A stretch of 63,686 nt of DNA, filler included, from Cirrosporium novae-zelandiae (Eukaryota), in the NCBI GenBank assembly GCA_026023565.1. It is 14 parts of 14 records of this genome, joined end to end, with 100 filler letters (N's around TTAATTAATTAA, not from the genome) between each part and the next. Parts side by side here need not be neighbours in the genome. Positions count along the whole stretch, not along the records: positions 15,556 to 18,023 come from JAPETS010000105.1; 13 more parts are not named here. One strand, given 5' to 3'. Position numbers and translations under genes: made by a program. Positions 1-31,824 of the stretch are shown in pieces. Under the pieces are notes generated by a model that had not been told where the DNA came from, ran no database searches, and saw only the letters and a list, made by a program, of their open reading frames with translations. The number at the start of each line of letters is the position of its first letter. Within the stretch, counting starts at the first letter, position 1.

Positions 1-3000
1 AAGCTCGGGTGATTAACCTCCCTGACTTTGATATGGTTTTAGGACTGTCTTGGTTACGGAAACACGATCCGTATATCAAATGGAGCAATATGACAATGGA
101 GATCAGTGACGATATGAATCGCAAACATCGGTTACGGATGACCAAATTCCTTGGGAACTGTTTAAACTACCTAGGGATAACAGAAGGATCGGAGGAACTG
201 GACCAGGATAACCGCCTTATGACGTTTCACGAATCGAAAAAAGGCCTTCTTAAACAACACCCCGGACCTCCTATCGCACACCTTATGATAGTAAAACCAA
301 TTACGAATACTTCCTGTTGCGAACATAAATTAACTATACTTTCCAAAGACAAACCCTTACGAACATTCGCGAATAAATACCAAGATATATTTCGCGAAGA
401 TCTTCCTCCGCAATTACCACCTGAACGTGATATAGTTCATTCTATAGATACTGGCGACGCAAAACCAGTAAACATTAACGCTTATCCACTGTCTCCTATA
501 CATCTCGAAGAGCAAGCCCGACAGGTTGCGGATCTACTTGAGAAAGGACTCATTCGCGAATCCGCAAGCCCTTGGGGCTTCCCAGTCCTCTTTGTTAAGA
601 AACCAGAGGGCAAATGGAGGATGTGTATAGATTATCGAGCACTGAACGCAGTTACGACTCGTAACGGATACCCTTTACCACGGATAGATGAATGCCTCAA
701 AGCATTAGGCAAAGCCAAATACATGTCAAAATTAGACCTAACCAACGGATACTGGCAGGTCCGCGTTGCGGATCCTGATATTCCTAAAACGGCCTTTAAC
801 ACTAGACAAGGTAAGTTCGAATTTACGGCTATGCCATTTGGACTCGCAAACGCTCCTGCGACCTTTCAGACAATGATGAACCGTATACTACGGCCTTATC
901 TTGATAAGTTTGTGACGGTATACCTTGATGACGTTGTCATATATTCGCAAACGATAGAAGAACACCGACAACATCTACAAACGATCTTTGAACTTTTACG
1001 GAAGTACCAATTATTCGCAAAACCCTCTAAGTGTATATTAGGTGCGACTACTCTAGAGTTTTGCGGACATTTAGTAGGAAAAGGCGAGATACGCCCGATA
1101 AATTCCAAAGTCCAAGTAGTATTGGATTGGCCTATCCCTAAAAACGTTCACGAATTACGTCAATTTTTGGGACTCGCAACCTACTACCGTAAATATATTA
1201 AAGGATTCGCAAAGATCTGTGTCCCCTTATTCGAATTGTTGAAAGAAACCGATCAAGAAACACGGAATCGTAAATTCCGCAAAATAACTTGGACTGCTCA
1301 ATGTCAGCTAGCTTTTGAATACCTCAAACAACGTCTTACGGAAGAACCAGTTTTGCGACAGCCAGATCTAGACAAAGAATTCTGGATCGCAACAGACGCA
1401 AGTGACAGAGCTATCGGAGCAGAACTACTCCAACATGACGAGAAAGGCAAACTTCATCCAGTAGCTTATGATGGCCGCAAACTAGTACCCGCGGAAATCA
1501 ATTATCCAGTCCACGAAAAGGAACTACTCGCGATCAAACATGCATTACATACATGGAACTCATGGGTCCGCGAAGACCGAAAAATTGTGGTCTTAACCGA
1601 CCACGACAGTCTCAAATATATGAACACGATGCGGCACCCTTCGAAAAGACTCGCGAGATGGTTAGACGAATTCCAACAATGGACTTTAGATATTCGTTAT
1701 CGCAAAGGAACAGAGAATATAGTTCCAGATGCGTTGAGCCGTAGACCAGACTTTACGGCTAGTATTAATGTTATTCGTGGATTCAACGAAGAAGAATGGA
1801 TAGATACAATAGTGGCATATTTACGAGATAACACGCCACCCCCAGAACATCTTGCGGAAGATATTTTACAGTCCGCAAAAGATTTTAGATGGTATCCAGA
1901 AGAAGGGCTACATTTCGTATACGAAGAAGCAGAAGTCCCTTACTTGGAACCATTATTACGAGCAAACTTCTTAGAAGCGATGCACGAAGAATATGGACAT
2001 CTGGCTTACCCAGGGCTTTTAGGAGTTTTACGGCTCCGCGGCTGGTGGCCAGATATAGCTAAAGACGTACAAAGGTACGCGCATTGTTGTCCACAATGTC
2101 AGATTGCCCAACGTTCGCAACCTGGGCTAGAACGAGAGCTCCCGCGAACATTCGCAAGCTCTAAACTTCAACCATTCGATAGGTGGGGTATAGATCTTAT
2201 AGGATTGCTCCCTACGACACCCAACGGGAACCGCTGGATTATCACAGCCATTGATTTTGCGACTGGATGGCCAGTTGCGGAAGCAGTACAGAATGCCACC
2301 GAGGAAAGAATAGCACAATTTATTCACGAAAGGATATTCATGGATTACGGACCACCTAAGGAGATTTTATCGGATAATGGAGCGAATCTGTTAGGTAAAG
2401 CTGTCAAGCGATATGTAGAACTAATGGGTACGAGACACCGCAAAACTACTCCTTACCATCCGCGAACAAATGGAAAAGTGGAAAACCTAAATGGAACGTT
2501 AGGCCGTATGTTAACTAAGTATCTGGTAAATAAACCTACCATACTGTGGGACCAATATCTCCCGCAAGCTTTGTTTGCGACTCGCGTTCGAGTACATGCC
2601 AAAACACAGCAAAGCCCATACTATTTACTTTACGGACGACATCCAGGATTACCAGGAGACCCCAATACCATTAAACCTCTTTCATTAGAAGTTTCCGCGG
2701 AAGAACATGACAAACGTATTGCGGATATGATAGATGCAAGAACAGCTGCCAATATTAAGCTTGTAGAAACAGCAGTAGCTAGAGGGAAGCTGAAAGCTGA
2801 ACTCGTAAAACTACCATCGTTTCGTAAAGGCGACTGGGTTCTTGTCCGCAACGAAGCTCCACAGAAATTCGAAGCCAAATGGTTCGGACCATATGAGATC
2901 ATACGTGTTATGGCATTAGGAACATATCAACTGCGCGACCCGCAAGGATACATAGTCAAAAATCTTGTGAATGGCCAACGATTAATAGCAGCTCAAATAC

Positions 3001-3244
3001 CTGCGAGAATGGAAATAAAGGATTACTGGCAGAGTTCGCGAATGCAAGCTTTGTCTCGAAGAATCAACCAAGCCCAAGCGTCCCAAGAATTCAATCAGGA
3101 ATTGGAGGTTGAAGTAGAAACACCAACGTTTGCGGAACTCGCAGACAGTCGACGTACAGGTGTACGTCCCCTTTTAGTAAGGGAGGAAGAGGCTAGGATA
3201 CAGCAACCGCAAAAAGCTGTAACGCTACCCTCAGTTGTGACGGT
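1..3244 (+). mobile_element. pol: Ty3/Gypsy LTR retrotransposon pol (RT-RNaseH-integrase), partial, uninterrupted
   Basis: RT motifs (WRMCIDYRALN, LDLTNGYWQ, MPFGLANAPATFQ, YLDD), RNase H (TDASD, EKELLA, TDH, DALSR), integrase HHCC plus DDE core (WGIDLIG, SDNG, NGKVEN) and GPY/F motif. RT-RH-IN order is Gypsy. The first 127 bp are identical to 30526-30652. Confidence 0.97.
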
Positions 3245-3344
3245 NNNNNNNNNNNNNNNNNNNNNNNNNNNNNNNNNNNNNNNNNNNNTTAATTAATTAA
3301 NNNNNNNNNNNNNNNNNNNNNNNNNNNNNNNNNNNNNNNNNNNN
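3245..3344. other. Artificial contig linker N-TTAATTAATTAA-N (first of 13)
   Basis: Same ~100-bp spacer with stops in all six frames recurs at 6500, 9620, 12626, 15456, 18024, 20445, 22731, 24973, 27199, 29319, 30653 and 31825. The contigs decrease in size. Confidence 0.99.
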
Positions 3345-5274
3345 CTATCCTGCGAAATGTTACTATGGCCAATGGTGCCTCTGATACAAAAGCGATGAAC
3401 CGTGAAACGTTTTGTCGTCTATTCCGAGCTATAATCCGTAACGCCGGATACTATGAGAATATCACCATTCATACTCTCCGTCGTGGTCTTGCAAATAAGG
3501 TTAATAGTAAGTGTGATTTTTTTCTAATTTAGAACAATTATTTCTAATGAGTTCTGTTGCTATTGTTTTTTTTTTTTTTTTCCGCTAGAAATTTTATTAA
3601 TGAATGAATTTCATAGAGGTTGCCACGGAATCAGAGCGGTCACAGATTTTAACCTACAAAGACCCCAACCTTTTTGGTAATGAGTATATCGCGCATCTTT
3701 CATCTATCGATGCACAGGCAATCTTTGTTGATGATATATCTAACACAGAATATATCAAACATTTTCAAAATGTCGGCAAATATCGTCAGATCGGTTTACC
3801 TTGCTATTTGCCTGCCGAACGGAAGGCAGCTCTCTCACAGGATCCGGATTTGCTCGATCTCAGGCGGCAGCTCCAGCAATTGGTCGAAAAAAATTCCGAT
3901 AAATGTGTCATCTCTACAGCCAAAAAACAATTTTTTGTTTATCAATCGCGTCTTAAGCCAGAGGCCCTGAAACAGTACCGCCAGAAATGGATTCGGACTC
4001 GGTTGGAAAGGGAGGTGCTGTCTTTTACGACCGGCCCTCCTGATGATTTTGTCAATACGGATTTTGTCGAAAACTTTTACCTACTTATACCCGAACGTAA
4101 ACGGCTAGCTATAACAATCAACTCGGAGAAAAGACTATCTTCCGAGGAGAAATTACAAACCACACAAGATTTGCTTTCTCTCTGTGTTCGAAATTTCGAT
4201 ATTATATATCGGCCAGGGGAACAACCCTCCCAGAGAACCTGTCCGGTGAACGGGTATAGCCTTTCATTAGACCGGTAACGTTGTCATCAACCCAGAGATC
4301 CGTTCCAGACTGACAGTCGTAGTATTGCGCGCTCTCGCCGCAGTAGCCATATTCATTTTTGCCGGCGCCGGGAATTTGCTGTCGTACATGGTTGTCCGGA
4401 ATGTGAGCTGCATTACTGCTTTCAGTGTTTCCAGTGGTACCACGAGGAAAACCAATGGGAAGCTCATTGCCGAGAATATCTTTCTTCGACTATTACTCGG
4501 CGGTGTGAAATTAGTACCTATTGCCACATTTTCATCCGTCCGGCATACTGTCCCATCTGTTTGGGGGACGAGAATATCCCTGCAGCGTCTCGGATGAAAT
4601 CGTGGACCCGAAATAGTGACTTATGGAAACATCTGAATCAGTATCTTCAAACTATTCAGTCTCGATGGCCCGCTTCCTGTCCTCACCCTCGATGTGATTG
4701 CCAGGTCGTCGACGAACAATCATTTCGCTATCATTTCAGTGATGTCCACGGCCTGCGACAGCGTTGGGGTGCCCAACAACACGAGCCGAAACAGAATGAG
4801 ACTACACCAGTTTCTATCCCGGAAGAGATCTTCGATCATGCTCCCGTGGAGCCAACACGGAAGCGGAAACGGCGGGAAAAACCATCATCTGAAAATTCAG
4901 CTCCTGATTCGGAATTTCCGAAACCGAGAAGGAGTCGAAGGATCGCCCTTATATTGAACAAAAAAAACATAAGCTCTGCTTCAAGCTCATCCTCTGTCGA
5001 TCAATCGCATAATCCTGGTCCCAGACTCTCTCTGGCCACTATAACTGAAAGCGGGTTTTCTGAGACGATGCCGTATTATCCAGATAATTTCACCACTTTG
5101 TCATATACCCCCACTCCTGATATAGTTTCTTCCATATCAGAATCCTGTTCTTCTATTGAAAATAATATCCAGAATATACCCGGATCGCCTTCTATGGCTG
5201 AATCACCCCTAACTGATATCTCGATGGATTCGATTCCAATTGACCCCCGCCTACTGCTGGAATTTAAAGAATAA
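3345..5274 (+). pseudogene. DUF3435-type tyrosine recombinase (Starship captain-like), 3' part, RIP-mutated copy
   Basis: Spliced translation ...AGYYENITIHTLRRGLANKVN|KVATESERSQILTYKDPNLFGNEY..., followed by Cys/His-rich zinc-finger-like blocks. Differs from the 13526-15455 copy mostly by C>T/G>A; the putative catalytic His is CAC>TAC at 3655. Confidence 0.72.
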
Positions 5275-5543
5275 CAAATAATTGGCTCATCTAGAATCCA
5301 GATGTATCTATCCTGTAACAATTTGCCTTTTTATTTTTATCTAGTTCTCTTTTTAATACCGTTAAACATGTTGCTTATCAGGCCAGTAAGTTTTGTCCAT
5401 CTAGACTGGGACTATAGTCTTATATAAACGAAAGTTTTCTGCCACGGGCGGGGTATAGCTAGTACAACCACATATATATTGTTTTTATGAAATATCTTCT
5501 ATCTATTTGATTTTGTTTCATATCTAGACCTGACTTAGTTCAG

Positions 5544-6150
5544 TTTAACGAATTTATAGAATGGAGATCGGGCCTTAAAATTCCTAATTGGGCTATCGTC
5601 TCATCAATTCCTGATGAGCATTGAAAAAGTATATTTTTTAAATACTCTTTTTCCGTTATATATCTCTGAATTTCTTTTTGGAGTTGTTGAGTTTCTTATG
5701 TTTTTTGATCAATAGTTAGTTTTGCAAATTAGTTCAATCTCGATTCTACTGAAGCTCGCTCTTTCTATTGCTGTAATTCGTTTATTAATCGATTATTATC
5801 GTTTTCCAATTCTTGGATTCGTGCTGCAAAACTAACACCAGGTTGGGTGAGACATATCTGTTCGGGAAAAAATCAGATCAAAATTCATGAGGACAGAATC
5901 ATGATGAATCTACTTTTATTTCTGAGGAATTTTCCGGACAACTGTCTTCATTATTCAGTTTTTGAAAACCTTTTGAGGCATCTGCCGGTACTGCCTCAAA
6001 CGAGACTCCCATTTCATGATATAGTGTTTTGTATACTCCGATTGAATATTTGCTCATATGTTGCTTAAAAAGATGCATTTTTTCAGGGAGAACGGCCCAT
6101 GCGTAAGGATCATTGGGTCGAGGAATTAGGCGTATTTCCGATAGCTGCAC
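5544..6150 (-). pseudogene. Small coiled-coil hypothetical gene convergent with the recombinase, RIP-mutated
   Basis: Homologous to 12726-13260 with C>T/G>A changes that create stops. Confidence 0.5.
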
Positions 6151-6599
6151 GGTCAGTCCTAATTGCTTTTCTTTTTGTTTTTATCAGTAATCTGGGTCTT
6201 TGTTAGGATTTCATTGATTATACCAATATATTTTGATAATTCCACTCGGCATTTATTTCTCCACTCGGCACGCTGCTTATTGCATGGTCGCGGTATAACC
6301 ATTATCTAAAAAGAACAATCCTAGAAAAAGATCTAGCTTCTGTCTGTTCTTAAGGATATATAACTTAGTTATTTCCGGAACAACAAGGAGACTTTTTGGC
6401 AAAACAATTTTGAGAAGAAAGAAAGATTATAAATTTGAAAAATAACCAGAAATTTACTAGGAAATTATGAGAATAAAAATAACCGGCCATTCATGAGGGN
6501 NNNNNNNNNNNNNNNNNNNNNNNNNNNNNNNNNNNNNNNNNNNTTAATTAATTAANNNNNNNNNNNNNNNNNNNNNNNNNNNNNNNNNNNNNNNNNNNN

Positions 6600-10500: not shown

Positions 10501-12625
10501 ATGGTTGAACTCTCTACCAGCAATCTCGAAGCGATCAAGACTTTTTCTATCAAAAATGAGCTTACTCTTTTCTGTATTAAATCGAAATCGAAATATTTTA
10601 ACTCCCATGCCAGCTTTGAGGAGGCTATCGATCAAATCTTACGCGACAAATCCAGCTTAAGTACGTAACAACTCTCGGATTGACGACACAACTAATGAAT
10701 TGTAGATGGGAAAGATCTAGTGCTTGATTTTATTTTGGCCCTTCAAAATTCGTTGGTGACCAGATTTTTTATTAGTGATCTTTTCCGTTTTGGATCATAG
10801 GTTACCTCAAATACAGTTAATTTTGAAATTTTTGCCGTTCTTCTGAAGTCTGTCTTCATCGATACCGAAGATACGGAAATATGGGCGGCTTTTATTTATT
10901 TTATTACCCAGACAAGGCCGGCTCCACAGCCAAGAACCCCTCCACCGTTTCTTCCATTCTTCGTATCCTCCGTTCAGCAAACACCATGGTCCTTCAACAC
11001 AAGCCAATTTGCGAACACATCCGAATTTAGAGAACATATTGATCCTATACTCAAGTCGGAGATGGAAGGCAACTTAATAATCGATCATCCGCACTTTTTT
11101 GATGTATACTTCGGTGGTGTGACTCAGTTGAAGGAAATATCTCAAATGGTGTTTGAAATATGCAAAAATATAGAGCCTCCGTTATATACGGAAGATACCG
11201 GTTGGTTAGATTGGCCAGAGGGCTGTGCAGAGACAGAAGTGTTACGCTGGCTCCGGAAACAGATCGGTCAGTTTGTCCTATTTGCAAAAGACTATGGCTT
11301 CCAATCTCTAAGTTGCCGACGATGCTTTACCACACCAAATAAACCAATACATGGATCGGTCAATAAACGAAAACTAGATATAGGTATCAAATATGACCTA
11401 AAAAGTGGAGATTAAGATTGGCAAGAGGAGCCCGGAAATAATGAAAATGAGTTGAGCGCAGATTGGTCCAAGATTCTTGTGTCTGGAGAGCTGAAATCTA
11501 ATCCCCAAAAAAACAATCACAATAGCACCTGGTTAAATCTCACTCGATATATGCGAGAAATATTTAAAGCACAGGATACGCGCCGATTTGCCCTTGGTTT
11601 TACTTTTTGCGGATCATTACTGCGACTCTGGGAATTCGATCGACTGGGAGGAATTGCATCTCCATCGTTCGATATCCAGAAAGACGGTCTCAAGTTGGTA
11701 TCTGTCATATTAGGTTATCTGTGGATGGATAATAAAGAACTGGGATTTGACTCGAGTGTTTCCCGAGAAAACAACACCAAATATCTAGAAATTTCAAAGA
11801 ACAACTAAGTGGAACGGTTGTATCTGGAAATATTGATAATGCGCTACGCTGCTATGGTCGGTCGAGCAACGATCTGTTGGAAAGTTTATTTTAGTAAAAA
11901 CAAAATGCAGGTTCTGGCAGTTAAGGATTCTTGGTAATACGAGGAACGACCGGAGGAGGGTCTGTTGTTGAAGAAAGCAACTGAACTCGGAGTGATTAAT
12001 ATGGTACGATATTATTGTCATGAAACTGTGTACGTGGGAGGTGCTGTTGACGATATCCGCTATAATGTGCGAAAAGGGTTAAAAGAAGAAGATAGGAGGA
12101 GTGTATTCCGACAGCGACGGACGATCAAATCCGAAACTATTATAGGATCCATCACGCCTGGAGATTCAATGATAGAGAGATTCAAGAGCAACAGCAGCAG
12201 CAGGAGCAGAAATATCACCCGAAAACGGTTATTAAGCTCGCTCCAAATATCTATGCCACCGCCCCCAAAACGTTCATGTTCAACCTTTCCGGTCAAACAA
12301 GACCGAGCCCGACCGCAACAGAATCGTGTCCATCGTCGTGTGGTGATGCGTGATATTGGGAAGAGCATCTACTTAGCCAGCTTTCGAGTGGCGACGCTTA
12401 GAGGACTACTGGGGGCGATTAGAAGTAAATATATAAAAAATATTTTATAGCTTCACTAATGGGTTTAGGACATGAATCACTGTTGGATATCCATATTTTT
12501 CATCGCGATATATCAGCTGGCAATATTATGCTGAATAAGGCAGAGGATGACGGGTTTTTAATCGACCTGGACCTTGCCATTGAAACCAATCGCAAAGAGG
12601 CGTCGGGTGCACCGACTAAAACCGG
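10501..12625 (+). pseudogene. FunK1 (Pkinase_fungal) kinase, RIP-inactivated copy
   Basis: GELKSN, RRFALGFTFCGSLLRLWEFDRLG, HRDISAGNIML, GFLIDLDLA. Premature stops from CAA/CAG at ~10798, 11413, 11806 and 11936 relative to the intact copies. Confidence 0.9.
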
Positions 12626-12725: not shown

Positions 12726-13260
12726 ACCTTTTTAAGCAACATATGAGCAAACATTCAATCGGAGCATACAAAACACTATGTCATGAAGTGGGAGTCTCGT
12801 TTGAGGCAGTACCGGCAGATGCCTCAAAGGGTTTTCAAAAACTGGATAATGAAGACAGTTGTCCGGAAAATTCCTCAGAAACAAAAGTAGATTCATCATG
12901 ATTCTGTCCTCATGAATTTTGATCTGATTTTTTCCCGAACAGATATGTCTCACCCAACCTGGTGTTAGTTTTGCAGCACGAATCCAAGAATTGGAAAGCG
13001 ACAATAATCGATTAACAAACGAATTACAGCAATGGAAAGAGCGAGCTTCAGCAGAGTCGAGATTGAACCAATTTGCAAAACTAACTATTGATCAGAGAAC
13101 ACAAGAAACTCAACAACTCCAAAAGGAAATTCAGAGATATATAACGGAGAAAGAGCATTTAAAAAATATACTTTTTCAATGCTCATCAGGAATTGATGAG
13201 ACGATAGCCCAATTAGGAATTTTAAGGCCCGATCTCCATTCTATAAATTCGTTAAACTGA
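12726..13260 (+). CDS. Hypothetical coiled-coil protein, partial, one predicted intron (~12887-12942)
   Basis: Open exons ...RIQELESDNNRLTNELQQWKERA...; conserved next to the recombinase in both copies. Confidence 0.5.
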
Positions 13261-13525
13261 ACTAAGTCAGGTCTAGATATGAAACAAAATCAAATAGATA
13301 GAAGATATTTCATAAAAACAATATATATGTGGTTGTACTAGCTATACCCCGCCCGTGGCAGAAAACTTTCGTTTATATAAGACTATAGTCCCAGTCTAGA
13401 TGGACAAAACTTACTGGCCTGATAAGCAACATGTTTAACGGTATTAAAAAGAGAACTAGATAAAAATAAAAAGGCAAATTGTTACAGGATAGATACATCT
13501 GGATTCTAGATGAGCCAATTATTTG

Positions 13526-15455
13526 TTATTCTTTAAATTCCAGCAGTAGGCGGGGGTCAATTGGAATCGAATCCATCGAGATATCAGTTAGGGGTGATTC
13601 AGCCATAGAAGGCGATCCGGGTATACTCTGGATATCATTCTCAATAGAAGAACAGGATTCTGACATGGAAGAAACTATATCAGGAGTGGGGGTATATGAC
13701 AAAGTGGTGAAATTATCTGGATAATACGGCATCGTCTCAGAAAACCCGCTTTCAGTCATAGTGGCCAGAGAGGGTCTGGGACCAGGATTATGCGATTGAT
13801 CGACAGAGGATGAGCTTGAAGCAGAGCTCATGTTTTTTTTGTTCAACATAAGGGCGATCCTTCGACTCCTTCTCGGTTTCGGAAGTTCCGAATCAGGAGC
13901 TGAATTTTCAGATGATGGCTTTTCCCGCCGTTTCCGCTTCCGTGTTGGCTCCACGGGAGCATGATCGAAGATCTCTTCCGGGATAGAAGCTGGTGTAGTC
14001 TCATCCTGTTTCGGCTCGTGTTGTTGGGCACCCCAACGCTGTCGCAGGCCGTGGACATCACTGAGATGATAGCGAAATGATTGTTCGTCGACGACCTGGC
14101 AATCACATCGAGGGTGAGGACAGGAAGCGGGCCATCGAGACTGAATAGTTTGAAGATGCTGATTCAGATGTTTCCATAAGTCACCACTTCGGGTCCACGA
14201 TTTCATCCGAGACGCTGCAGGGATATTCTCGTCCCCCAAACAGATGGGACAGTATGCCGGACGGATGAGAGTGTGGCAATAGGTACTAACTTCACACCGC
14301 CGAGTAATGGTCGAAGAAAGATGCTCTCGGCAATGAGCTTCCCATTGGTTTTCCTCGTGGTACCACTGGAAACACTGAAAGCAGTAGTGCAGCTCACATT
14401 CCGGACAACCATGTACGACAGCAAATTCCCGGCGCCGGCAAGAATGAATATGGCTACTGCGGCGAGAGCGCGCAATACTACGACTGTCAGTCTGGAACGG
14501 ATCTCTGGGTTGATGACAACGTTACCGGTCTAATGAAAGGCCACACCCGTTCACCGGACAGGTTCCCTGGGAGGGTTGTTCCCCTGGCCGATATATAACA
14601 TCGAAATTTCGAACACAGAGAGAGAGCAAATCTTGTGTGGTTTGTAATTTCTCCTCGGAAGATAGTCTCTTCTCCGAGTTGATTGTCATAGCTAGCCGCT
14701 TACGTTCGGGCATAAGCAGGTAAAGGTCTTCGACAAAATCCGTATTGACAAAATCATCAGGAGGGCCGGTCGTAAAAGACAGCACCTCCCTTTCCAACCG
14801 AGTCCGAATCCATTTCTGGCGGTACTGCTTCAGGGCCTCTGGCTCAAGACGCGATTGATAAACAAAAAGTTGTTTTTTGGCTGTAGAGATGACACATTTA
14901 TCGGAATTTTTTTCGACCAATTGCTGGAGCTGCCGCCTGAGATCGAGCAAGTCCGGATCCTGTGAGAGAGCTGCCTTCCGTTCGGCAGGCAAATGGCAAG
15001 GCAAACCGATCTGACGATATTTGCCGACACTTTGAAGATGTTTGATATGTTCTGTGTTGGGTACACCATCAACAAAGATTGCCTGTGCATCGACAGATGA
15101 AAGATGCGCGATATACTCATTACCAAAAAGGTTGGGGTCTTTGTGGGTTAAAATCTGTGACCGCTCTGATTCCGTGGCAACCTCTATGAAATTCATTCAT
15201 TAATAAAACTTCTAGCGGAAAAAAAAAAAAAAAACAATAGCAACAGAACTCATTAGAAATAATTGTTCTAAGCTAGAAAAAAATCACACTTACTATTAAC
15301 CTTATTTGCAAGACCACGACGGAGAGTGTGAATGGTGATATTCTCATAGTATCCGGCGTTACGGATTATAGCTCGGAATAGACGACAAAACGTTTCACGG
15401 TTCATCGCTTTTGTATCAGAGGCACCATTGGCCATAGTAACATTTCGCAGGATAG
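13526..15455 (-). CDS. DUF3435-type tyrosine recombinase (Starship captain-like), 3' part, apparently intact
   Basis: HxxR (HTLRR), then H (ILTHKD) and Y (FGNEY) in tyrosine-recombinase order; VDAQAIF; C-terminal YCFQCFQW..HC..HL, CPICLG and CPHPRC..HL.DVH blocks; two GT-AG introns. Confidence 0.75.
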
Positions 15456-15555
15456 NNNNNNNNNNNNNNNNNNNNNNNNNNNNNNNNNNNNNNNNNNNNT
15501 TAATTAATTAANNNNNNNNNNNNNNNNNNNNNNNNNNNNNNNNNNNNNNNNNNNN

Positions 15556-18023
15556 GGGTTGGGTCATCCATACAGAGCCTTGTTGAATCTGCTCCCAACT
15601 AACAATTGTTTCACGCCTTGACCAAGTTATGCTTAATCCTCCAGTACAAATGCTAGCTGCAGCTCCACTGCGTGTTCTTCGTCACTATGACTCGGTAGTA
15701 ACTTGACTGGATCTACAAAGATAGGTTTCCCCGATGCGGTGGCCGTCCTGTAATTCAACTGCTCCACACTATGTTTGACTTTGGCTTTCACGTACTCGTC
15801 ATTCATATCTCTTATATCCATTTTATTCCTCTTGCCTCCCACTCTCGAAAGCCTAAGAATCCCATCCGGATTATCACCTATTCACATACAAGCCTTGCTG
15901 GAAGCCGTCTGGTAATCATACACCACTCTACCTTCCATTCTCACACTACTGGGAATACTCTCTTTTCTCTCCCCCAGTCATCACCGAAGTGCATGGGATA
16001 CGAGATCCAATAGTATTTCACTTCAGCTTATTAGTTTCATTATTCTTGACCCCAATATCTGCGTCATGTAATCTGTTCAGTATTTGGTCATTAATCAGGA
16101 GTCTTTCCGGATCTCTCATTTTCAACCGATATCTTTCGCTTCTTCTATTCCAAAGTCATAGTTCTTGCCGACGATTTTGTTGATCTCGGCTAGCGTTACT
16201 TCTCCGTTGATATCTAGTGATCCGGCGTCGTTTTTAAGTATCCCTTTGTCCATGTCCAGTTCTGAGCCCAGCCATACTAGTCGGTCTGTTGCAACCTTCG
16301 ATTTTTGTAGAGAGATGTGGATTCCCGTTCCTAGTAATACCGATGATATTCTCCGGTGTTCCTCTGCTAGCCTTTTTGGAGTGGCCTTGTCCACTGCCAC
16401 AATTAGGTCATCTGCGTACATAACACAGTCATCATTCAATACTCCGGAACGTTCTACTACTCAGGAACATAGTAGAGGTGCCCATGGAGAACCTTGGGGA
16501 AGTCCCCATTTTCTCACATGATACTGTACCACATTACCTATTATAGAATATTGCTCCTCTATTTCTCCTTCTCCTTGTCTGAATCTCTCGCTCTTGTCTT
16601 TCATTATCGGGAAGGATACTTGAACTAGTAAGTTTATGTACGATGCCAGTGCCGGATTGACTGCATCTAGCCCGTCCTTTACTGCTCTAGGGCTTACCCT
16701 GTTAAAGAATTTCTCTAAGTCTATGCTCAGAAATTCCTTCCCTTGCTTATACTTTTCAATTATCTCCATCCAGGCTGTCCCTATACCTTTCCCTCTTTTG
16801 AAACCATGTTGTTGCTGGACTCTTTCCGGGCTAATTCACATTTCCAGGTAATCATTTAACATTTTACCCCAGATTCTTCATGCCAAACGTGGAGCTCCAA
16901 TCGGTCTCATCTTTCCGTTTGGTTTGGGCACATAGATTCTATATGTCACCTGGGGGGCTACTCACCTGTTTATAATAATGTCTAGTTCTGCCATTATATT
17001 TTCTAGTCTTTCTAGACTACAGTTATAATATCAGCCCGAAATGACCTTATTCAGATAGTATGTCCGGTAGGCTCGCGAATATCTACTTAAGGTTTGAAAG
17101 ACCACGTTAGCGGTCTTATCATCTCCTTTCTGAACCAGTTTCCTAAGCCTTCTCTCTTGATGTGACAGGTATCTATTCCCTCTGCTTTTCTTACGACCTC
17201 CTCGACCAACTAGGATGTCTGGTATATGCCAGACAAGTCGATCACACTGCGAGTTTGAGGGTTCCCTACCCGGTTCGATCTTACCAGAAGTTTTGTCTCT
17301 TTGCTCTACGTTCATCAGTCTTTAAGGTGTATAAATTGCAGGTTCATTTGTTTTCGACCTGTATGCCCTATATGCCACCTAGGTATTTAATGCTTGGCTT
17401 CGCCGCCGGTCGTCTTCTCTGCAGCACCCCGGCTTCCTAGTCACTGACCTCCTCTTGTCTCTTATTTGAGTTGCACTTACTCCTTCTTTAAGATTGGTTC
17501 GACCCTAGCTTCTAACTTAGTGAGGAATTGTTTATTCAATCCTTTCATTGCTCCATATCCCGTGAACCCAAGCGCGGGGTATCGCACATTATTGGCTATT
17601 GAAAGTCGATTATCTTTTGGAAGTAAAGCTGTATCACGTCAGCAATTTAATACACCGGCAAAGTACCTATCTTTGTCGGGCGGTTTGGTCTATTGAAACG
17701 CCGTAGTTCCTTCATGGAATCAGGCTGTGACCACGTTGATATTTATGTCTCGATCCCGGTTGTTCTCGAGGCAATTTATCGAAGAGGCAATTTAATCAAG
17801 AACCGGTGGACCATGAGGCTCAATTGGGTCGCCTACGCAAGTAGTGCGACATATTGGGCCTTTAATCCACCCGGCAATGCGGTTTTGGTACTTAGATCGC
17901 GGCCGTGGGTTCCTCGCAATCCTTTCCTTGTTTCGTTTGTGCCGTTTTCACGGTACTCTCGAAATTTTGGAAATTTTTTCTGAATTAAAATTTCAGAAAT
18001 TTTGGATTTACGGGAAATCTCAC
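15556..18023 (-). mobile_element. Putative mitochondrial retroplasmid (2468-bp contig)
   Basis: A single code-4 RT ORF fills most of the contig, with a structured non-coding leader, no host genes and no RIP damage. Confidence 0.82.
15633..17315 (-). CDS. Retroplasmid-type reverse transcriptase, 560 aa, mould mitochondrial code (TGA=Trp)
   Basis: Manual translation gives ATG 17315 to TAA 15633 in one frame with 13 TGA and no TAA/TAG. Motifs: YRIYVPKPNGKMRPIGAP.LAWRIW, QHGFKRGKGIGTAW, SIDLEKFF, GLPQGSPWAPLL, YADD, ISLQKS, WLG. Confidence 0.93.
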
Positions 18024-18123
18024 NNNNNNNNNNNNNNNNNNNNNNNNNNNNNNNNNNNNNNNNNNNNTTAATTAATTAANNNNNNNNNNNNNNNNNNNNN
18101 NNNNNNNNNNNNNNNNNNNNNNN

Positions 18124-19880
18124 CTATTTGCAAAAGACCATGGCTTCCAACCTCCAAGTTGCCGACGATGCTTTACCACACCAAATAAACCAATACATGG
18201 ATCGGTCAGTAAACGAAAACTAGATATAGGCATCAAATATGACCTAAAAAGTGGAGATCAAGATTGGCAAGAGGAGCCCGGAAATGATGAAAATGAGTTG
18301 AGTGCAGATTGGTCCAAGATTCTTGTGCCTGGAGAGCTGAAATCTAATCCCCAAGAAGACAATCACAATGGCACCTGGTTAGATCTCACTCGATATGTTC
18401 GAGAAATATTTAATGCACAGGATACACGCCGATTTGTCCTTGGCTTTACTTTTTGCGGATCATTGCTACGACTATGGGAATTTGATAGACTTGGAGGAAT
18501 CGCATCTCCATCGTTTGATATCCAGAAAGATGGTATGAAATTGGTATCTGTCATGTTGGGCTATCTGTGGATGAATGAAGAAGAACTGGGGTTTGACCCG
18601 AGTGTCTCCCGAGAAAATGACACCAGATATCTCGAAATTTCGAAAAATAACCAAACGGAGCGGTTGTGTCTACAAATATTGATAATGCGCCACGCTGCCG
18701 TGGTCGGTCGAGCAACGACCTGCTGGAAAGCTCATCTCAGTAAAGACAAAATGCAGATTCTGGCAGTCAAGGATTCTTGGCAATACGAGGAACGACCGGA
18801 GGAGGGTCTGTTGTTGAAGAAAGCAACTGAACTCGGAGTGACTAATGTGGCACGATATTATTGTCATGAAACTGTGTACGTGGGAGGTGCTGTTGACGAC
18901 ATCCGCCATAATGTGCGAAAAGGGTTAAAAGAAGAAGATGGGAGGAGTGCATTCCGACAGCGACGGACGATCAAATCCGAAACTATTATAGGATCTATCA
19001 CGCCTGGAGATTCAATGATAGAGAGATTCAAGAGCAACAGCAGCAGCAGGAGCAGAAGTATCACCCGAAAACGGTTATCAAGCTCGCTCCAAATATCTAT
19101 GCCACCGCCCCCAAAACGTTCATGTTCAACCTCTCCGGTCAAACAAGACCGAGCCCGACCGCAACAGAATCGTGTCCATCGTCGTGTGGTGATGCGTGAT
19201 ATTGGGAAGAGCATCTACTTAGCCAGCTCTCGAGTGGCGACGCTTAGAGGACTACTGGGGGCGATTAGAGGTAAGTATATAAAAAATATTTCATAGCTTC
19301 ACTAATGGGTTTAGGACATGAATCACTGTTGGATGTCCATATTCTTCATCGCGATATATCAGCTGGCAATATTATGCTGAATAAGGCAGAGGATGACGGG
19401 TTTTTAATCGACCTGGACCTTGCCATTGAAACCAATCGCAAAGAGGCGTCGGGTGCACCGACTAAAACCGGCACCAAGATTTTCATGGCGATCGGTGCAC
19501 TTTATGGTGAACAGCATAGTTTCGTACATGATTTGGAATCGTTTTTCTGGGTTCTATTCTGGATCTGTGTTCATTGCGTCGAGCCAGGGGGGAAATACCG
19601 GAAGACCGAATTCGAATCTTGGAATTACACGCCAATCGAGAGGCTTGCAAGAGAAAAAGCAGGCCTTGTAACCCAAGAAATGGACTTTGTTAGGATCATG
19701 AATGAGGATATTACGGACTACTGCAAACCTTTTGTCCCATGGCTTACGGAACTACATCATGCTGTCTTTCCCAATTATCAAAGGCGGACAAGTGAAGATC
19801 GAAGTTTGTATTCTATGATGAAAATGGTCCTTCAGCAGGCTCTGGATGACCCAGAGGTTCAGGCTCAATGGGTTCCGTGA
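18124..19880 (+). CDS. FunK1 (Pkinase_fungal) kinase, 3' part, intact copy; intron 19271-19314
   Basis: AVKDSWQYEERPEEG, HRDISAGNIML, IDLDLA, GTKIFMAIGAL, HDLESFFWVLFWIC; no stops. Confidence 0.92.
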
Positions 19881-20289
19881 GCCCGATCAGATGTGATTAT
19901 ACAGTGACTACGATAATCTAGGATCTTTAATTAATTGGATTAAACATATTGTTCGACTTCTGACACTGGAGCCCAGCCAACCTAATATATTCGGGGTTTA
20001 GTTTCAACTATATAGCTGTAATGGAATGGGCCTTTGATGAGGAAATGATGACGAAGACTGGTAGACTTAGCTTTCTAGAAGTTCTTTGTAAATTTCACAC
20101 GCCTCTTTTATCACCTGCTCTCTTGCTGGACTATAATTTTAGGTGCCAGCGAATACTGTTTTCTTATTCATTTTGCCTATCCTGCTCTACTCTATAGCTC
20201 TTTCAAAGCCTATCGATGCCTCGAAGTTCTCAGCGACTGAAGACGAGTTGACGCATTGAATATTATAATTTTGGGGGACATTTTGCATA

Positions 20290-20440
20290 CCATGGGGAAC
20301 AGAACGCCCATGGGGAACCACATCCCCGGTGGGATGCGCTACCGCGTGGTGATTATCGCCCATGTGGGAGGCAAATCCCATGAGGGTTGCAATTCCTTAT
20401 GGGATCAGGTAGCCTGTGGGATTTGTGGCCCATAGGGTAG
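20290..20440 (+). repeat. Degenerate 17-18-bp periodic array with palindromic CC(C)..(G)GG cores
   Basis: Cores at ~20290, 20307, 20324, 20341, 20359, 20377, 20396, 20413 and 20429; the first two read CCATGGGGAAC. Confidence 0.6.
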
Positions 20441-21644
20441 GAAGNNNNNNNNNNNNNNNNNNNNNNNNNNNNNNNNNNNNNNNNNNNNTTAATTAATTAA
20501 NNNNNNNNNNNNNNNNNNNNNNNNNNNNNNNNNNNNNNNNNNNNACCCCACAACCCCCCCCCCCCCCCCCCCCTTCCTTTTACCACCACACCCAAAAACA
20601 AACCAAAAGCAAATGATTAAAAGTTTTTAACCCTGACTCATCAATATATGATGATCAAAAAAACGCAACAACTAAACACTCTAATTTTTTAATGATGCTC
20701 TTAAATGTTTATCCTCTTTTGAATGATACTGGTTTTCTATTTCATGTGGACTGTGTGGGCTAATGACTTGTGTCTTTGGAAGGTGATGGTGGTATTTAGG
20801 GCTGAATTCCTTTTTTGAAGATTCAGAAATAGAAGAAGAGGGGGGAGAGATGTACTGTACGTAGTCTACGAAAGAATACTATGGGATGGGGATAGTTCCT
20901 ATTACAGATGGACTTGGACCTTGAATATATAGATTCTGGATTTAAAGGAAATCGACGTTGGTATTTCAACATGACAAAACACACGTAATATTTAGATAAT
21001 AAACATCCAAGACTCCCCAGTCTTTTTTTCGGATATATATTCTATTGCCCGGGCTAGGGCTTCAAGAACAGAACCGATTAGCAGGAATCCGGAATTATAG
21101 TAAAGTCTTCTTCGATTCTATCGTTGTTAACCCAGCATTTAGCATATACCTACAGGCACCTTAATAGGCACATTTATCGTGGAGCGGAAGATAGCTTTCA
21201 GTGAGGCAAGGAGACCCCAAGTCGACGACGTCAGTGGCTAGGATTGTCAACTTACCTAGGTAGTTTATGCTAAATAAGTTAAAACTATCAATGATTGATA
21301 ACGGGAACAACGGCTTCTGGAGTACCGAATAAAGCAGTCTACTAGGTATTTTTTCTCTGTAGATAGGATACTACAGTTTTAACGGCATCATAAATTCCAC
21401 AAACCCTTTCTATTCGGGTGCCTTGTTTACTATATACTCGAGTAAATCTTGGCGTTCCCAATATCAACATCAGGCGTGTCAAGGAAAGGCAGTTTCAAAA
21501 TTGTGAACACAGACCGCGTTGTAGGTCAAATAGCAACTGTCAAACTTTACCGCTAGGCATCGGTAATAGGCATGGATACCTCAGCTTGAGCTGGAAGCCT
21601 GTATACAGTTTCCATTGAAAGCTTGAAAAAAAAAATTGCACAGG

Positions 21645-22730
21645 TTAACTTAAGGATATTAGAAGATATATGTTTAGACCCTCCTTTTTGTCAATCATCA
21701 CCTCTATGGCGGAGACGAAATGAAGCCCCGACTTAAATTCTGGAAGGTTGATTGGTTTAGATACCCCTAGATTTAGCCGCCAGAGAATACTCGTTATAAA
21801 GCGGGATTCGCCTAGAACTCCATCCAAGTGGTGTTTTAAACCAAAATTACAATTCAAGGGAACAAAGGCTTGAATAGGTTTTTCATTCAATTGATGTTTA
21901 AGCTAACCATGCTTCCTTCGCTTTAGCCCCTCCAAGTCCAGCTCGTCCTCCAAATCCTCCCCCAGTTGCATCGACGGAAGTCGCAAGCTCCTATCCCTAG
22001 AAAAAGAATCATCGTTCGGGTGAGTTGTCGGATCCCATATAAAAGTTTGGCGTCTGCGTCTCTGTGGAACCTCGGTCCTTTGGCTCGATTGCTGTGGACT
22101 TTGTTGACTTGCACTTGCCCTGATATCCCCCCCCAAACGATCTGCTTCTCTCGATGAACCTTGATGGAACCGATCCCGAGCAAGCTCCAAATCCTTTAGA
22201 GTGATTGCTTGTAGTTTTGCAGTCCGGATGTATTTCATATTCTCGACTCGGTTTTCTCTAGCATCTAAAACAGCCTCTTGAACCACCTCTTTTTCTACTC
22301 CTGTCATAGACTTCAAAACTTCCAGCATTGCCCTTGACCAGTGTTCAGGAGCATGTTCAGAGAAAAGGTCCTCGGGTCTGCAATTCCATGCACTATGTAC
22401 TTCTTTGATGGCTCTTAGCCCGCGAGTATCAGACTTCTCAATCGATGGCAACACAGATCCGGCTGGGCTATCCTATATGCACATTTTAGAAAGATGATCA
22501 TATCAATTTAATTCCAAGAGTTTAGATCATACCCTTTGTTGCCTTTGATTCCTTTGGAGATCTGTCATGGTCTGCGACTGTAGAAAATCCTGTCTCTGCT
22601 GCTGCTCCTGCTGCTCCTGCTGCTCCTGCTGCTCCTGCTGCTCCTGCTGCTCCTGCTGCTCCTGCTGCTCCTGCTGCTCCTGCTGCTCCTGCTGCTCCTG
22701 CTGCTCCTGCTGCTCCTGCTGCTCCTGCTG
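21645..22730 (-). CDS. Hypothetical intron-containing protein with N-terminal QQE repeat, partial
   Basis: 183-aa open exon (21903-22454) linked by a plausible intron to a QQE-repeat exon; no recognisable domain. Confidence 0.4.
22597..22730. repeat. 9-bp tandem repeat (CTGCTGCTC)n
   Basis: Perfect 9-mer array running to the contig end. Confidence 0.95.
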
Positions 22731-25142: not shown

Positions 25143-25185
25143 ACCCCCGCTCCTCAGCATTACTGCTGAGGTAGCGGGGGGGGGT
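25143..25185. repeat. GC-rich palindrome CCCCGCT-CCTCAGCA..TGCTGAGG-TAGCGGGG, second copy at ~27137-27180
   Basis: Inverted repeat seen directly, present near both contig ends. Confidence 0.85.
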
Positions 25186-25410
25186 CAAAAAAAAAAGCAG
25201 CCGGGGGCTAGGTGGGTAGTTTTCTCTTTTTTTCTCTTTTATTTTTTTTGTTTTTTTTTATTAGAAAAAAAATATAAAACTCAGGGAGGGGAGGGGGAAC
25301 AGGAGCAGAAAAATATTTAATATCAAACACTTAGGAACTTAATTACTAATTAAGAAAGGAAAGTTCCAATTGTCAGATTGGATCATATAATAAGATCCAT
25401 ACTGACTTAA

Positions 25411-26410: not shown

Positions 26411-27514
26411 TGCTTGCTCTGCCCTCCCCCCCTCCTTGTGGTTTATTCCAAATATCTCCTTGTGTATATCTTTGTCTTCTTTTTATAGATCGTGAAGCTA
26501 TTAAGTTGTTGAATTACGATAAGTTATTCAAGCCTCCCCTACCTAGTGTTAAAAAAACCGCTCCGCAGAGAAAACAATCCAAGCCCCCACTCGTAGAGTG
26601 GGGGCTTTGGGGGCTTTGTGTAATGGTAAATATCTTAAATAAATTTGTGCATGCTCCTATGAAATACAGCCTAAAATCTATATTCTTTTCTTTACGGTTT
26701 AAGTTTTATTTTTTTTTTATCTTTATAGTATAGTAATTAATCAAAAATTTTCTTTATTTGTTTATTGACTCCGTAGTGGGTGCTTATTTAAGCTTAATAT
26801 TCCAACCGGTGTTTTCTATATTTAGTGGTTTATTATTATCTGTTGCTTTGTGTTTATGGGTATTCTATGTCTTTCCTGCGAACAGGGATATTTTCCTATT
26901 CTTGTTATATTTAGCACTCTTTCTGTTTTTAGTCTTAGCTGGTTTTGTTCTTATAGCCCCTTTTTCTGCGGAGCGGTTTTTTTTTAGTGTTTGTTTTTTT
27001 TCTGCGGAGCGGTTTTTTTTTTTAACAAGAAAAAACTGCTCCGCGCTCCGCGCTTCGCGCTCCGCACTAGCCCCCCAAAATTTCTTTGGGGGCTAGGGGC
27101 TTAAAGGATTCTTAGGTTTATATAATCTTTTAATATCCCCCCTCCTCAGCATTACTGCTGAGGTAGCGGGGGGGGGGGGGCAAAAAAAAACAAGCAAANN
27201 NNNNNNNNNNNNNNNNNNNNNNNNNNNNNNNNNNNNNNNNNNTTAATTAATTAANNNNNNNNNNNNNNNNNNNNNNNNNNNNNNNNNNNNNNNNNNNNTA
27301 AATATAATTTTCAACTGCTAGGCAAAATATTCTGCTTGCTGCACCATCTTACAGATTTGACACTTCTTAAAGTGGGAGAGAAGAAGTCTGGAAGCAGAAA
27401 TTCAAAAGAGAGTCGCGCGACTTTTCAGAAATCCTAGAAAACAGAAACCCTAGGAAAGTAGAAATCCCAGGATAATAGAAACCCCAAGGCAACAAAAACC
27501 TTAAGGCAGAAGAG

Positions 27515-30752: not shown

Positions 30753-30946
30753 TTTTTTTTTTTTTTTTTTTTTTTTTTTTCTTTTTTTTTTTTTTTTATA
30801 CCCCGTTCTTTTTTTTTATTTTCCCCGTTTTTGCTTTTTCGACGTTCCTACTAATTATATTTCAGATTTTTTTTTTTTTTATTTATTTTTTTGTCTATTA
30901 CTATCACTATTATTATTATTATTATTACTATTATTATTATCGTCAC

Positions 30947-30978
<32 letters not shown>

Positions 30979-31163
30979 TTTTTTCGCGTTTTTTTTTCTC
31001 CGTCCTTAATCCTATTGCTACTGTTCGTGGCGCTTTTTTTTTCAGATCTATATATCTGAAGTGTTTCTGGCGTTTTGCGGCAAACCTTTTTTTCGTATAT
31101 TCCTAAATACCTGGCCGTTCCTGTAGCGTCTGTTATAAATAATATAAAAAATATTTCGAAATT

Positions 31164-31204
<41 letters not shown>

Positions 31205-31824
31205 ATTTATTATTTTTCCAGATTTTTTTTATTCTGGTGTTTCGTTTAAACCGCCTATTTGCGTAGACCGATATTATCGTTTCCGCCCGTTCTAACAATA
31301 TTAGTGCCGTCTTTCATAAAAAGTTTTTGGTTTCGGCCCGTCGTTTCCACCGTCGGATTATAATTATCCGTCGATTAAAACGTATTACGTTATTTGATTC
31401 TCGCGCCCGTATTAATCAGTTATTATTTAAAATCAATTAATCTATTCGGTAATTAGATTAGATATTTACGGTTATTATATATATTTTTTTTATTTTCGTA
31501 CGTTTTTTGATTAATCTTGAATAATATAACGTAAATATCGATAATAATAAAAAAAAGAATAATAACGATAATATAAATTATTTTTTTTATAATTTTTTTT
31601 TTGACGACGTTTTTATGGGTACTAATATTAGTATTAATTCGGTTTCTAGAAATAATAAAAATTCTGGCGTTATTAGGAATATGGTCGGTGTTTAAATTTT
31701 TATATAATTATTAGTATTTGAGTATTTTTTATTACGGATTATATACGTCTAAAATACGTTTTTTTTTTCGATAAATATTCCGTAATTTTTAAAATCGTTA
31801 ATAAAATTTTTTTTTTTTTTTTTT
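30753..31824. repeat. Extremely AT-rich, RIP-saturated relic
   Basis: Poly-T and TAT runs, very few CpA/TpG, CpG retained; no credible ORF. Confidence 0.65.

Follow-up and report, generated by a model that had tools for sequence, protein, structure and literature searches.

We examined whether a 2468-bp contig at positions 15556-18023 of the analysed window (the whole stretch of 63,686 nt of Cirrosporium novae-zelandiae DNA, filler included) is a mitochondrial retroplasmid, that is, a small multi-copy extrachromosomal DNA with a reverse transcriptase (RT) as its sole gene. The contig carries an open reading frame (ORF) that is continuous under the mitochondrial code (translation table 4) and is interrupted under the standard one. 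We consider it likely that the contig represents a mitochondrial retroplasmid, probably close to its full length, from an ascomycete of the Pezizomycotina. Four features carry this reading: an RT-only ORF that depends on TGA as tryptophan, a free-standing contig, its very high unitig depth in the source run, and the position of the RT within a clade of RT-only proteins. Together they fit the published working definition of a retroplasmid, which in the available excerpts of PMC12737674 asks for ORFs longer than 100 aa under the mitochondrial code only and for RVT_1 alone, whereas a group II intron has Intron_maturas2 and HNH.

Reading frame and genetic code

On the minus strand, translation with table 4 gave a single frame of 560 residues, running from ATG to TAA without an internal stop (Table 1). 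Exactly 13 codons of this ORF differ between table 4 and table 11, and all of them are TGA. A first-pass annotation, made from the sequence alone, had proposed one frame interrupted by TGA only, and all 13 interruptions that it listed, from 17031 to 15882, were recovered. Read as tryptophan, they correspond to W95, W118, W146, W160, W285, W398, W400, W407, W413, W431, W445, W446 and W478, next to which the ORF contains 6 tryptophans encoded by TGG. To our knowledge, TGA is read as tryptophan among fungi by mitochondria only.

The openness of a frame under table 4 alone is no evidence for a gene. This follows from two control frames of the window, 48351-50168 (605 aa, 26 TGA codons) and 56931-58115 (394 aa, 11 TGA codons), which are open under table 4 only, lie antisense to standard-code ORFs and showed no Pfam match. 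We judge the RT frame to be real because of its homology and because its TGA codons fall on columns where relatives have tryptophan. In alignment A1, which comprises the RT and 25 relatives, all 25 relatives carry tryptophan at the columns of W95 and W400, 22/25 at W398, 18/25 at W431 and 10/25 at W146. A profile of the family matched one of the 745 table-4 stop-to-stop frames of at least 50 aa in the window, the RT ORF; as the profile includes the RT query, the score of the RT under it is given by construction.

The longest standard-code ORF of the contig has 102 aa, and the public record, likewise a contig of 2468 bp, carries just a 110-aa standard-code fragment (P0007), identical to RT residues 288-397. 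Standard-code annotation thus caught only a fragment of the RT gene, which agrees with the earlier expectation that it would miss the gene. The ORF occupies 1683 bp of the contig, and the sole other frame of the contig that was scanned, a 133-aa table-4 frame opposite the leader, had no Pfam match.

The state of the frame also bears on the idea that the contig derives from a once mitochondrial element that was inserted into the nuclear genome, similar to nuclear mitochondrial DNA segments, or is a dead copy, with a frame that is open by chance or by youth. Other small contigs of the window are indeed nuclear repeats (Ty3-type pol, gag, a fungal kinase family, DUF3435), and the RT deviates at four nearly invariant columns and sits on a long branch (see below). 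However, the chance of 560 codons without TAA or TAG at 44% G+C is approximately 2e-10 (an estimate from base frequencies), no catalytic residue has been lost, and nuclear flanks are absent on both sides. Moreover, no nuclear repeat fragment of unique sequence would come near a unitig depth of about 2x10^4. A nuclear or dead copy is therefore very improbable in our view.

Table 1. Coordinates of the candidate retroplasmid and its parts along the window; residue numbers refer to the RT
Feature	Position	Strand	Basis or remark
Stand-alone contig, candidate retroplasmid	15556..18023	-	Linker map, 2468 bp
Reverse transcriptase ORF, 560 aa	15633..17315	-	Table-4 translation, RVT_1, TGA on conserved Trp columns
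Non-coding leader 5' of the ORF, 708 nt	17316..18023	-	Small hairpins by the contig end
Helical N-terminal extension, family-specific, residues 39-117	16965..17201	-	A1 alignment, AlphaFold pLDDT (predicted local distance difference test) 86-95
RVT_1 domain, fingers and palm, residues 129-352	16260..16931	-	Pfam; D199 of SIDLEKFF; YADD 16407-16418
Helical C-terminal thumb-like region, residues 375-481	15873..16193	-	W.W motif (W398, W400, both TGA); no Pfam maturase
Tail 3' of the stop codon, 77 nt	15556..15632	-	Ends ...GACCCAACCC at the contig edge

The reverse transcriptase

Pfam recognised RVT_1 alone on the 560-aa protein (E 2.2e-20). The motif series that the first-pass annotation had read from the sequence was confirmed, with YVPKPNGKMRPIGAP at residues 128-142, HGFKRGKGIGTAW at 170-182, DLEKFF at 199-204, LPQG at 272-275 and YADD at 300-303. 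No sequence of A1 (26/26) lacks the catalytic aspartates D199, D302 and D303. The N-terminal extension carries the motif NRYL..Q.RRL and an invariant GWY, the tryptophan of which is encoded by TGA, with N47, S80, W95 and Y96 conserved.

An AlphaFold model of the RT (pLDDT 76.6, predicted template modelling score 0.79) consists of the helical N-terminal extension, fingers and palm, and a helical thumb-like region. When the model was compared with solved structures by Foldseek, the matches were RTs of group II introns, G2L4, R2, LINE-1 and retrons, with E values from 1e-11 to 1e-8, and the alignments to whole group II intron RTs covered 420-490 columns. The fold as modelled is of the type of retroelements without long terminal repeats (non-LTR), as is stated for retroplasmid RTs in the excerpts of PMC3035579. 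Its nearest neighbour is the GsI-IIC RT (7k9y_A, E 1.5e-11). The resemblance to group II intron RTs thus includes the nearest fold, the nearest named sequence families, and an N-terminal extension and helical thumb in common.

Relation to group II introns and to other RTs

This resemblance raises the possibility that the contig stems from the mitochondrial chromosome, be it as the ORF of a group II intron or as a retroplasmid copy integrated in mitochondrial DNA (mtDNA) that was split off by the assembler. TGA as tryptophan would suit any mitochondrial gene, the nearest solved structures and the sole named sequence matches are group II intron RTs, and the excerpted PMC12737674 reports RTs of retroplasmids that are integrated or decayed within mtDNA. 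On the other hand, the RT differs from group II intron RTs in several respects. Its score against the NCBIfam equivalog of group II RT/maturases, TIGR04416, was 68 bits, below the cut-off of 300 bits. Pfam detected neither a maturase domain (X/GIIM, Intron_maturas2) nor HNH on the protein, and an Rfam search of the contig returned no RNA of group II introns, either at the gathering threshold or at the looser E<=10.

We then placed the RT in a maximum likelihood tree of 75 rows and 230 RT-core columns, obtained by a quick search. The 63 RT-only rows, including the RT of the window, formed one clade with a support of 97 in the Shimodaira-Hasegawa-like approximate likelihood ratio test and a stem of 0.81, which stands apart from the 7 group II and 3 RT-Cas1 RTs of the tree. 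All rows were aligned by hmmalign to the A1 family profile, and the alignment of the outgroup may therefore favour the family. The Ty3 RT of the first contig was left out, as just 79 of its columns could be aligned. Within the clade, the RT of the window has no close kin, the highest core identity being 34%.

Based on the TIGR04416 score, the lack of maturase domains and of intron RNA, and the separate clade, we rejected the reading of the frame as a group II intron ORF. The first-pass annotation had itself named an RT inside the group II maturases with intron flanks as the outcome that would overturn its proposal; the RT was found in a separate clade, with no group II RNA. Its second such outcome, reads that tie both ends to chromosomal or mtDNA sequence at single-copy depth, was not encountered either. 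As for a mtDNA piece in general, the ORF is intact, no mitochondrial gene or tRNA lies at the contig ends, and relatives of the RT are consistently whole contigs of 1.6-3.2 kb. Taken together, we regard an origin from the mitochondrial chromosome as improbable.

A family of RT-only elements

An exhaustive HMMER search yielded 1128 cluster representatives at E<=1e-3, of which 415 had E<=1e-10 and 19 had E<=1e-30. The best matches shared 29-33% identity with the RT and measured 470-570 aa, and no cluster representative among 1.84 billion exceeded about 33-34%. Among the best 149 relatives, a Pfam scan assigned RVT_1 only to 145, no domain to 3, and RVT_1 together with GIY-YIG to 1, with GIIM or Intron_maturas2 in none. 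In the clusters of 29 relatives, the longest contig per cluster always measured 1,697-3,183 bp. The annotations of these 29 clusters, and of the one with the fragment P0007, read 'hypothetical protein' or 'retron-type reverse transcriptase' only, and none bore the name of a retroplasmid.

A metagenome scan, for which an alignment of 8 sequences (A2) was used, provided seven relatives (L001-L007), each of them a complete contig of 1.7-2.3 kb. With table 4, the longest ORF of each comprises 373-649 aa and 8-13 TGA codons; with the standard code, it reaches only 85-152 aa. The RT of the window belongs to a large family of RT-only elements, hardly any of them annotated, which measure about 2-3 kb and use TGA for tryptophan. 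The claim of the first-pass annotation that such elements are a small and rarely reported group was too strong, given the 415 representatives at E<=1e-10 and the 12 retroplasmids and more than 124 contigs described for Botrytis cinerea in the excerpts of PMC12737674. The size of the family in sequence space, with no maturase domain among the 149 relatives and no retroplasmid name among the 29 clusters, is among the reasons why we find it worth reporting.

Other searches were less specific. Word-indexed homology searches returned 5 matches with the protein and 20 with A1, mostly generic group II, RT-Cas1 and non-LTR RTs, and were dominated by generic RT words. In the ESM Atlas, the relative P0008 retrieved generic RT clusters only. 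A scan of viral contigs for relatives gave 46 pattern matches, none of which was confirmed.

At the 3' end of L006, a poly(A) run is followed by further sequence, which presumably is of the T7-promoter/adaptor type. If so, the L006 contig is cDNA from a transcriptome library, and at least one member of the family then exists as RNA.

Contig, depth and host

According to the linker map, the RT ORF sits alone on its contig, with artificial linkers on both sides. Each linker is 100 bp long and consists of 44 N, TTAATTAATTAA and another 44 N; 13 of them divide the first 31.9 kb of the window (1-31924) into small contigs of descending size. As the RT ORF has a contig to itself, neighbouring sequence is uninformative about it. 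At the DNA level, neither the remainder of the window nor any of the seven related loci resembles the contig, and the contig ends (15556 and 18023) carry no mitochondrial gene, no tRNA and no flanking chromosomal or mtDNA sequence. An inverted repeat that appears to adjoin the ORF (3245-6072 / 12728-15555) was considered as a part of the element and rejected, its arms lying on separate contigs. Repeats or 'synteny' that cross a linker are artefacts of concatenation. The sequence TTAATTAATTAA also occurs at 38362 and 47468, where no N adjoins it, and is natural there.

In the source run X1, the one public run in which the contig was located, its main unitigs had k-mer depths of 14,364-22,213. 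No RNA run was listed among its holders, which says nothing about expression. The contig sequence was split there into 949 unitigs, 751 of which were at least 99% alike, with minor variants at depths of 32-81. This shattering into 949 pieces can be ascribed to the extreme depth, at which sequencing errors form unitigs of their own.

Concerning the host, the neighbouring contigs carry Pkinase_fungal, DUF3435, a Ty3-type pol with gag and protease, SLA1 and an Afu_298 small nucleolar RNA (snoRNA). The N-terminal part of SLA1 shares 71-76% identity with lichen-forming Lecanoromycetes and 65-72% with other Pezizomycotina. Judging from these genes and the SLA1 identities, the host is an ascomycete of the Pezizomycotina; Lecanoromycetes are the nearest class, and the class itself is uncertain.

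The element might instead be a retroplasmid-like one of another organism in the sample, be it a further fungus or some other eukaryote with TGA as a tryptophan codon in its mitochondria. The host was assigned by the shared assembly, its closest relatives by nuclear sequence are lichen-forming fungi, organisms of mixed communities, and the relatives of the RT all come from metagenome, metatranscriptome or Logan contigs. However, the contigs of X1 sum to 35.7 Mb, one fungal genome's worth, and the element is over-represented at a depth of about 2x10^4, which is hard to reconcile with a minor contaminant. The element was also not seen in runs X2 and X3 of the same study, which is no proof of its absence. 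We consider a foreign origin to be decidedly improbable.

Ends of the contig and points against a retroplasmid

The leader contains an inverted repeat (17962-17977 / 17987-18002). Folded as DNA, its first 140 nt reach -20.4 kcal/mol (z -3.2), and 0/200 shuffles were equally stable. As for the tail, the RNA fold of the 3' 125 nt was no better than that of shuffles (z 0.15), with no tRNA-like fold. Loose ends in contigs of the source run were considered as plasmid termini and rejected, as they proved to be library adapter sequence.

Several observations weigh against the retroplasmid reading. Terminal overlap, and hence a sign of a circle, was not found at the contig ends. The contig has no terminal inverted repeat and no long terminal hairpin. 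Instead of a short 3' repeat array, we found only ...GACCCAACCC, with no tandem repeat at either end, and neither a 3' tRNA-like structure nor CCA was found on the contig. Short-read assembly could have lost the true termini. The lack of end structures of the pFOXC type thus lowers the claim of membership in that group and does not imply exclusion, because the assembly may have trimmed the ends.

The protein adds to these points. At four A1 columns that are at least 90% conserved, the RT deviates from its relatives (E197 to S, S279 to A, G304 to L and F348 to W); due to the third of these changes it has YADDL, compared with the YADDG usual in A1. Furthermore, its terminal branch measures 1.38, compared with a median of 0.67 in the RT-only clade. 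The four deviating columns and the long branch make RT activity uncertain.

The remaining points concern copy number, host and kinship. Depth, obtained in X1 for this contig alone, is a strong hint of high copy number, but contig depth is no copy number, and that X1 is a DNA run ('DNA?') is a guess. The assignment of the element to its host rests on co-assembly. The presumed kinship to the RTs of pFOXC1-3, pThr1, Mauriceville and Varkud is drawn from shared features and the literature. We infer membership in the pFOXC/pThr1 assemblage on these grounds.

Weighed against these points, the retroplasmid reading keeps the greater part of what the first-pass annotation had called an autonomous mitochondrial retroplasmid. 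The RT-only ORF, TGA as tryptophan, the lone contig, the depth and the lack of group II traits all fit it, and what we infer are autonomy and mitochondrial location.

Proposed replication cycle

If the contig is a retroplasmid, a cycle can be proposed after the models for pFOXC and Mauriceville. The plasmid would be transcribed from end to end by the mitochondrial RNA polymerase of the host. From this transcript, the 560-aa RT would be made on mitochondrial ribosomes, with the 13 UGA codons read as tryptophan, and would copy its own RNA from the 3' end into cDNA. The cDNA would then be turned double-stranded, restoring the plasmid. Synthesis of the cDNA might start on a protein primer, the mode of pFOXC, or begin de novo at a 3' CCA, the mode of Mauriceville.

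Comparison with known retroplasmids

Among the described systems, pFOXC1/2/3 of Fusarium oxysporum are characterised by Galligan, Marchetti & Kennell 2011 (PMC3035579, as excerpted) as linear DNAs of about 1.9 kb with a terminal hairpin ('clothespin'), a 5'-linked protein, and a 3' end that bears ATCTA or CAA in 3-5 copies. Their RTs have 497-527 aa and share less than 40% identity between groups in the conserved domains, according to the same excerpts. The element described here resembles them as a small DNA with a single RT ORF lacking RNase H or added domains, and its RT is of similar length (560 aa); the divergence between pFOXC groups is comparable to the 29-34% identity of our RT to its nearest relatives. 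It differs from them in size, its 2468 bp including the 708-nt leader, and neither the clothespin hairpin, the 3' ATCTA/CAA repeats nor the 5'-linked protein was seen here, although these may have been lost in assembly.

The retroplasmids of Botrytis cinerea, for which Huang et al. 2025 (PMC12737674, as excerpted) list 12 elements and over 124 contigs from whole-genome shotgun data, and pThr1 of Trichoderma harzianum share the working definition with our element. They too occur as small whole-genome-shotgun contigs and are skipped by standard annotation. Their hosts are Leotiomycetes and Sordariomycetes, whereas ours belongs to the Pezizomycotina nearest to Lecanoromycetes. The host group is probably one without a previously described retroplasmid.

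The Mauriceville and Varkud plasmids of Neurospora measure about 3.6 kb, encode an RT of about 710 aa and have a 3' tRNA-like CCA end. Our element is smaller, and neither a tRNA-like structure or CCA at its 3' end nor an overlap of its termini was found. The Neurospora plasmids are described in the excerpted PMC3035579 and PMC12737674 as circular and mitochondrial, with a single RT gene and replication through a full-length transcript. The single RT gene is shared by our element, for which mitochondrial location and replication through a full-length transcript are presumed.

All things considered, the element is a new and very divergent example (at most 34% identity) of a known kind and represents no new kind of system. 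We also considered whether it founds a deep, unsampled lineage of retroplasmids in a class of the Lecanoromycetes type, or in a neighbouring class, that lacks described ones. This idea is prompted by the identities of at most 33-34%, the branch of twice the median length, YADDL, the 708-nt leader and the lack of pFOXC or Mauriceville ends, and we hold it to be doubtful. If it were true, a third mode of priming and of end maintenance could exist.

Few known retroelements are as simple as retroplasmids. Debates on the origins of telomerase, of non-LTR elements and of protein priming of the hepadnavirus type have drawn on retroplasmid RTs (PMC3035579, as excerpted), and the diversity of retroplasmids is said to be largely unknown in the excerpts of PMC12737674. 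The present case shows how standard-code annotation hides them.

Other features of the window

A standard-code frame of 1097 aa at 3-3296, open past the start of the window, codes for a pol of the Ty3/gypsy type that comprises RVT_1, RNase H and integrase; this is the RT of a nuclear retrotransposon, unlike the TGA-dependent RT of 15633-17315. At 3345-6499 and 12726-15455 lie two separate contigs, one of which matches the reverse complement of the other at 97% over 2828 nt, linker Ns counted in, and each contains a 224-aa DUF3435 ORF and a 237-aa ORF without Pfam match. The pair probably represents a fungal repeat element in two copies or alleles. Copies of Pkinase_fungal (PF17667) were present on two contigs, nearly intact at 18298-19880 and in broken pieces at 11062-12450, and these contigs share 300 nt at 95% identity (11278-11577 and 18124-18423).

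The 2.1-kb contig at 25073-27198 carries five tRNA genes (Phe-GAA, Leu-UAG, Gln-UUG, His-GUG and Met-CAU) within 850 bp, two of which reach the Rfam tRNA threshold. It also contains palindromes of G/C runs at 25145-25196, with a copy at 27137-27188, and repeats of the TACGGAG type. This contig resembles a piece of mtDNA or might be a mitochondrial plasmid with tRNA genes. Another contig, 1.07 kb long (30753-31824), has about 28% G+C, long T runs at both ends and ATT/TAT microsatellites, and may represent AT-rich repeats or an intergenic part of mtDNA. Finally, the Afu_298 C/D-box snoRNA, a nuclear marker of ascomycetes, was located on a separate small contig at 20609-20697 with 64.6 bits, compared with a gathering score of 40.

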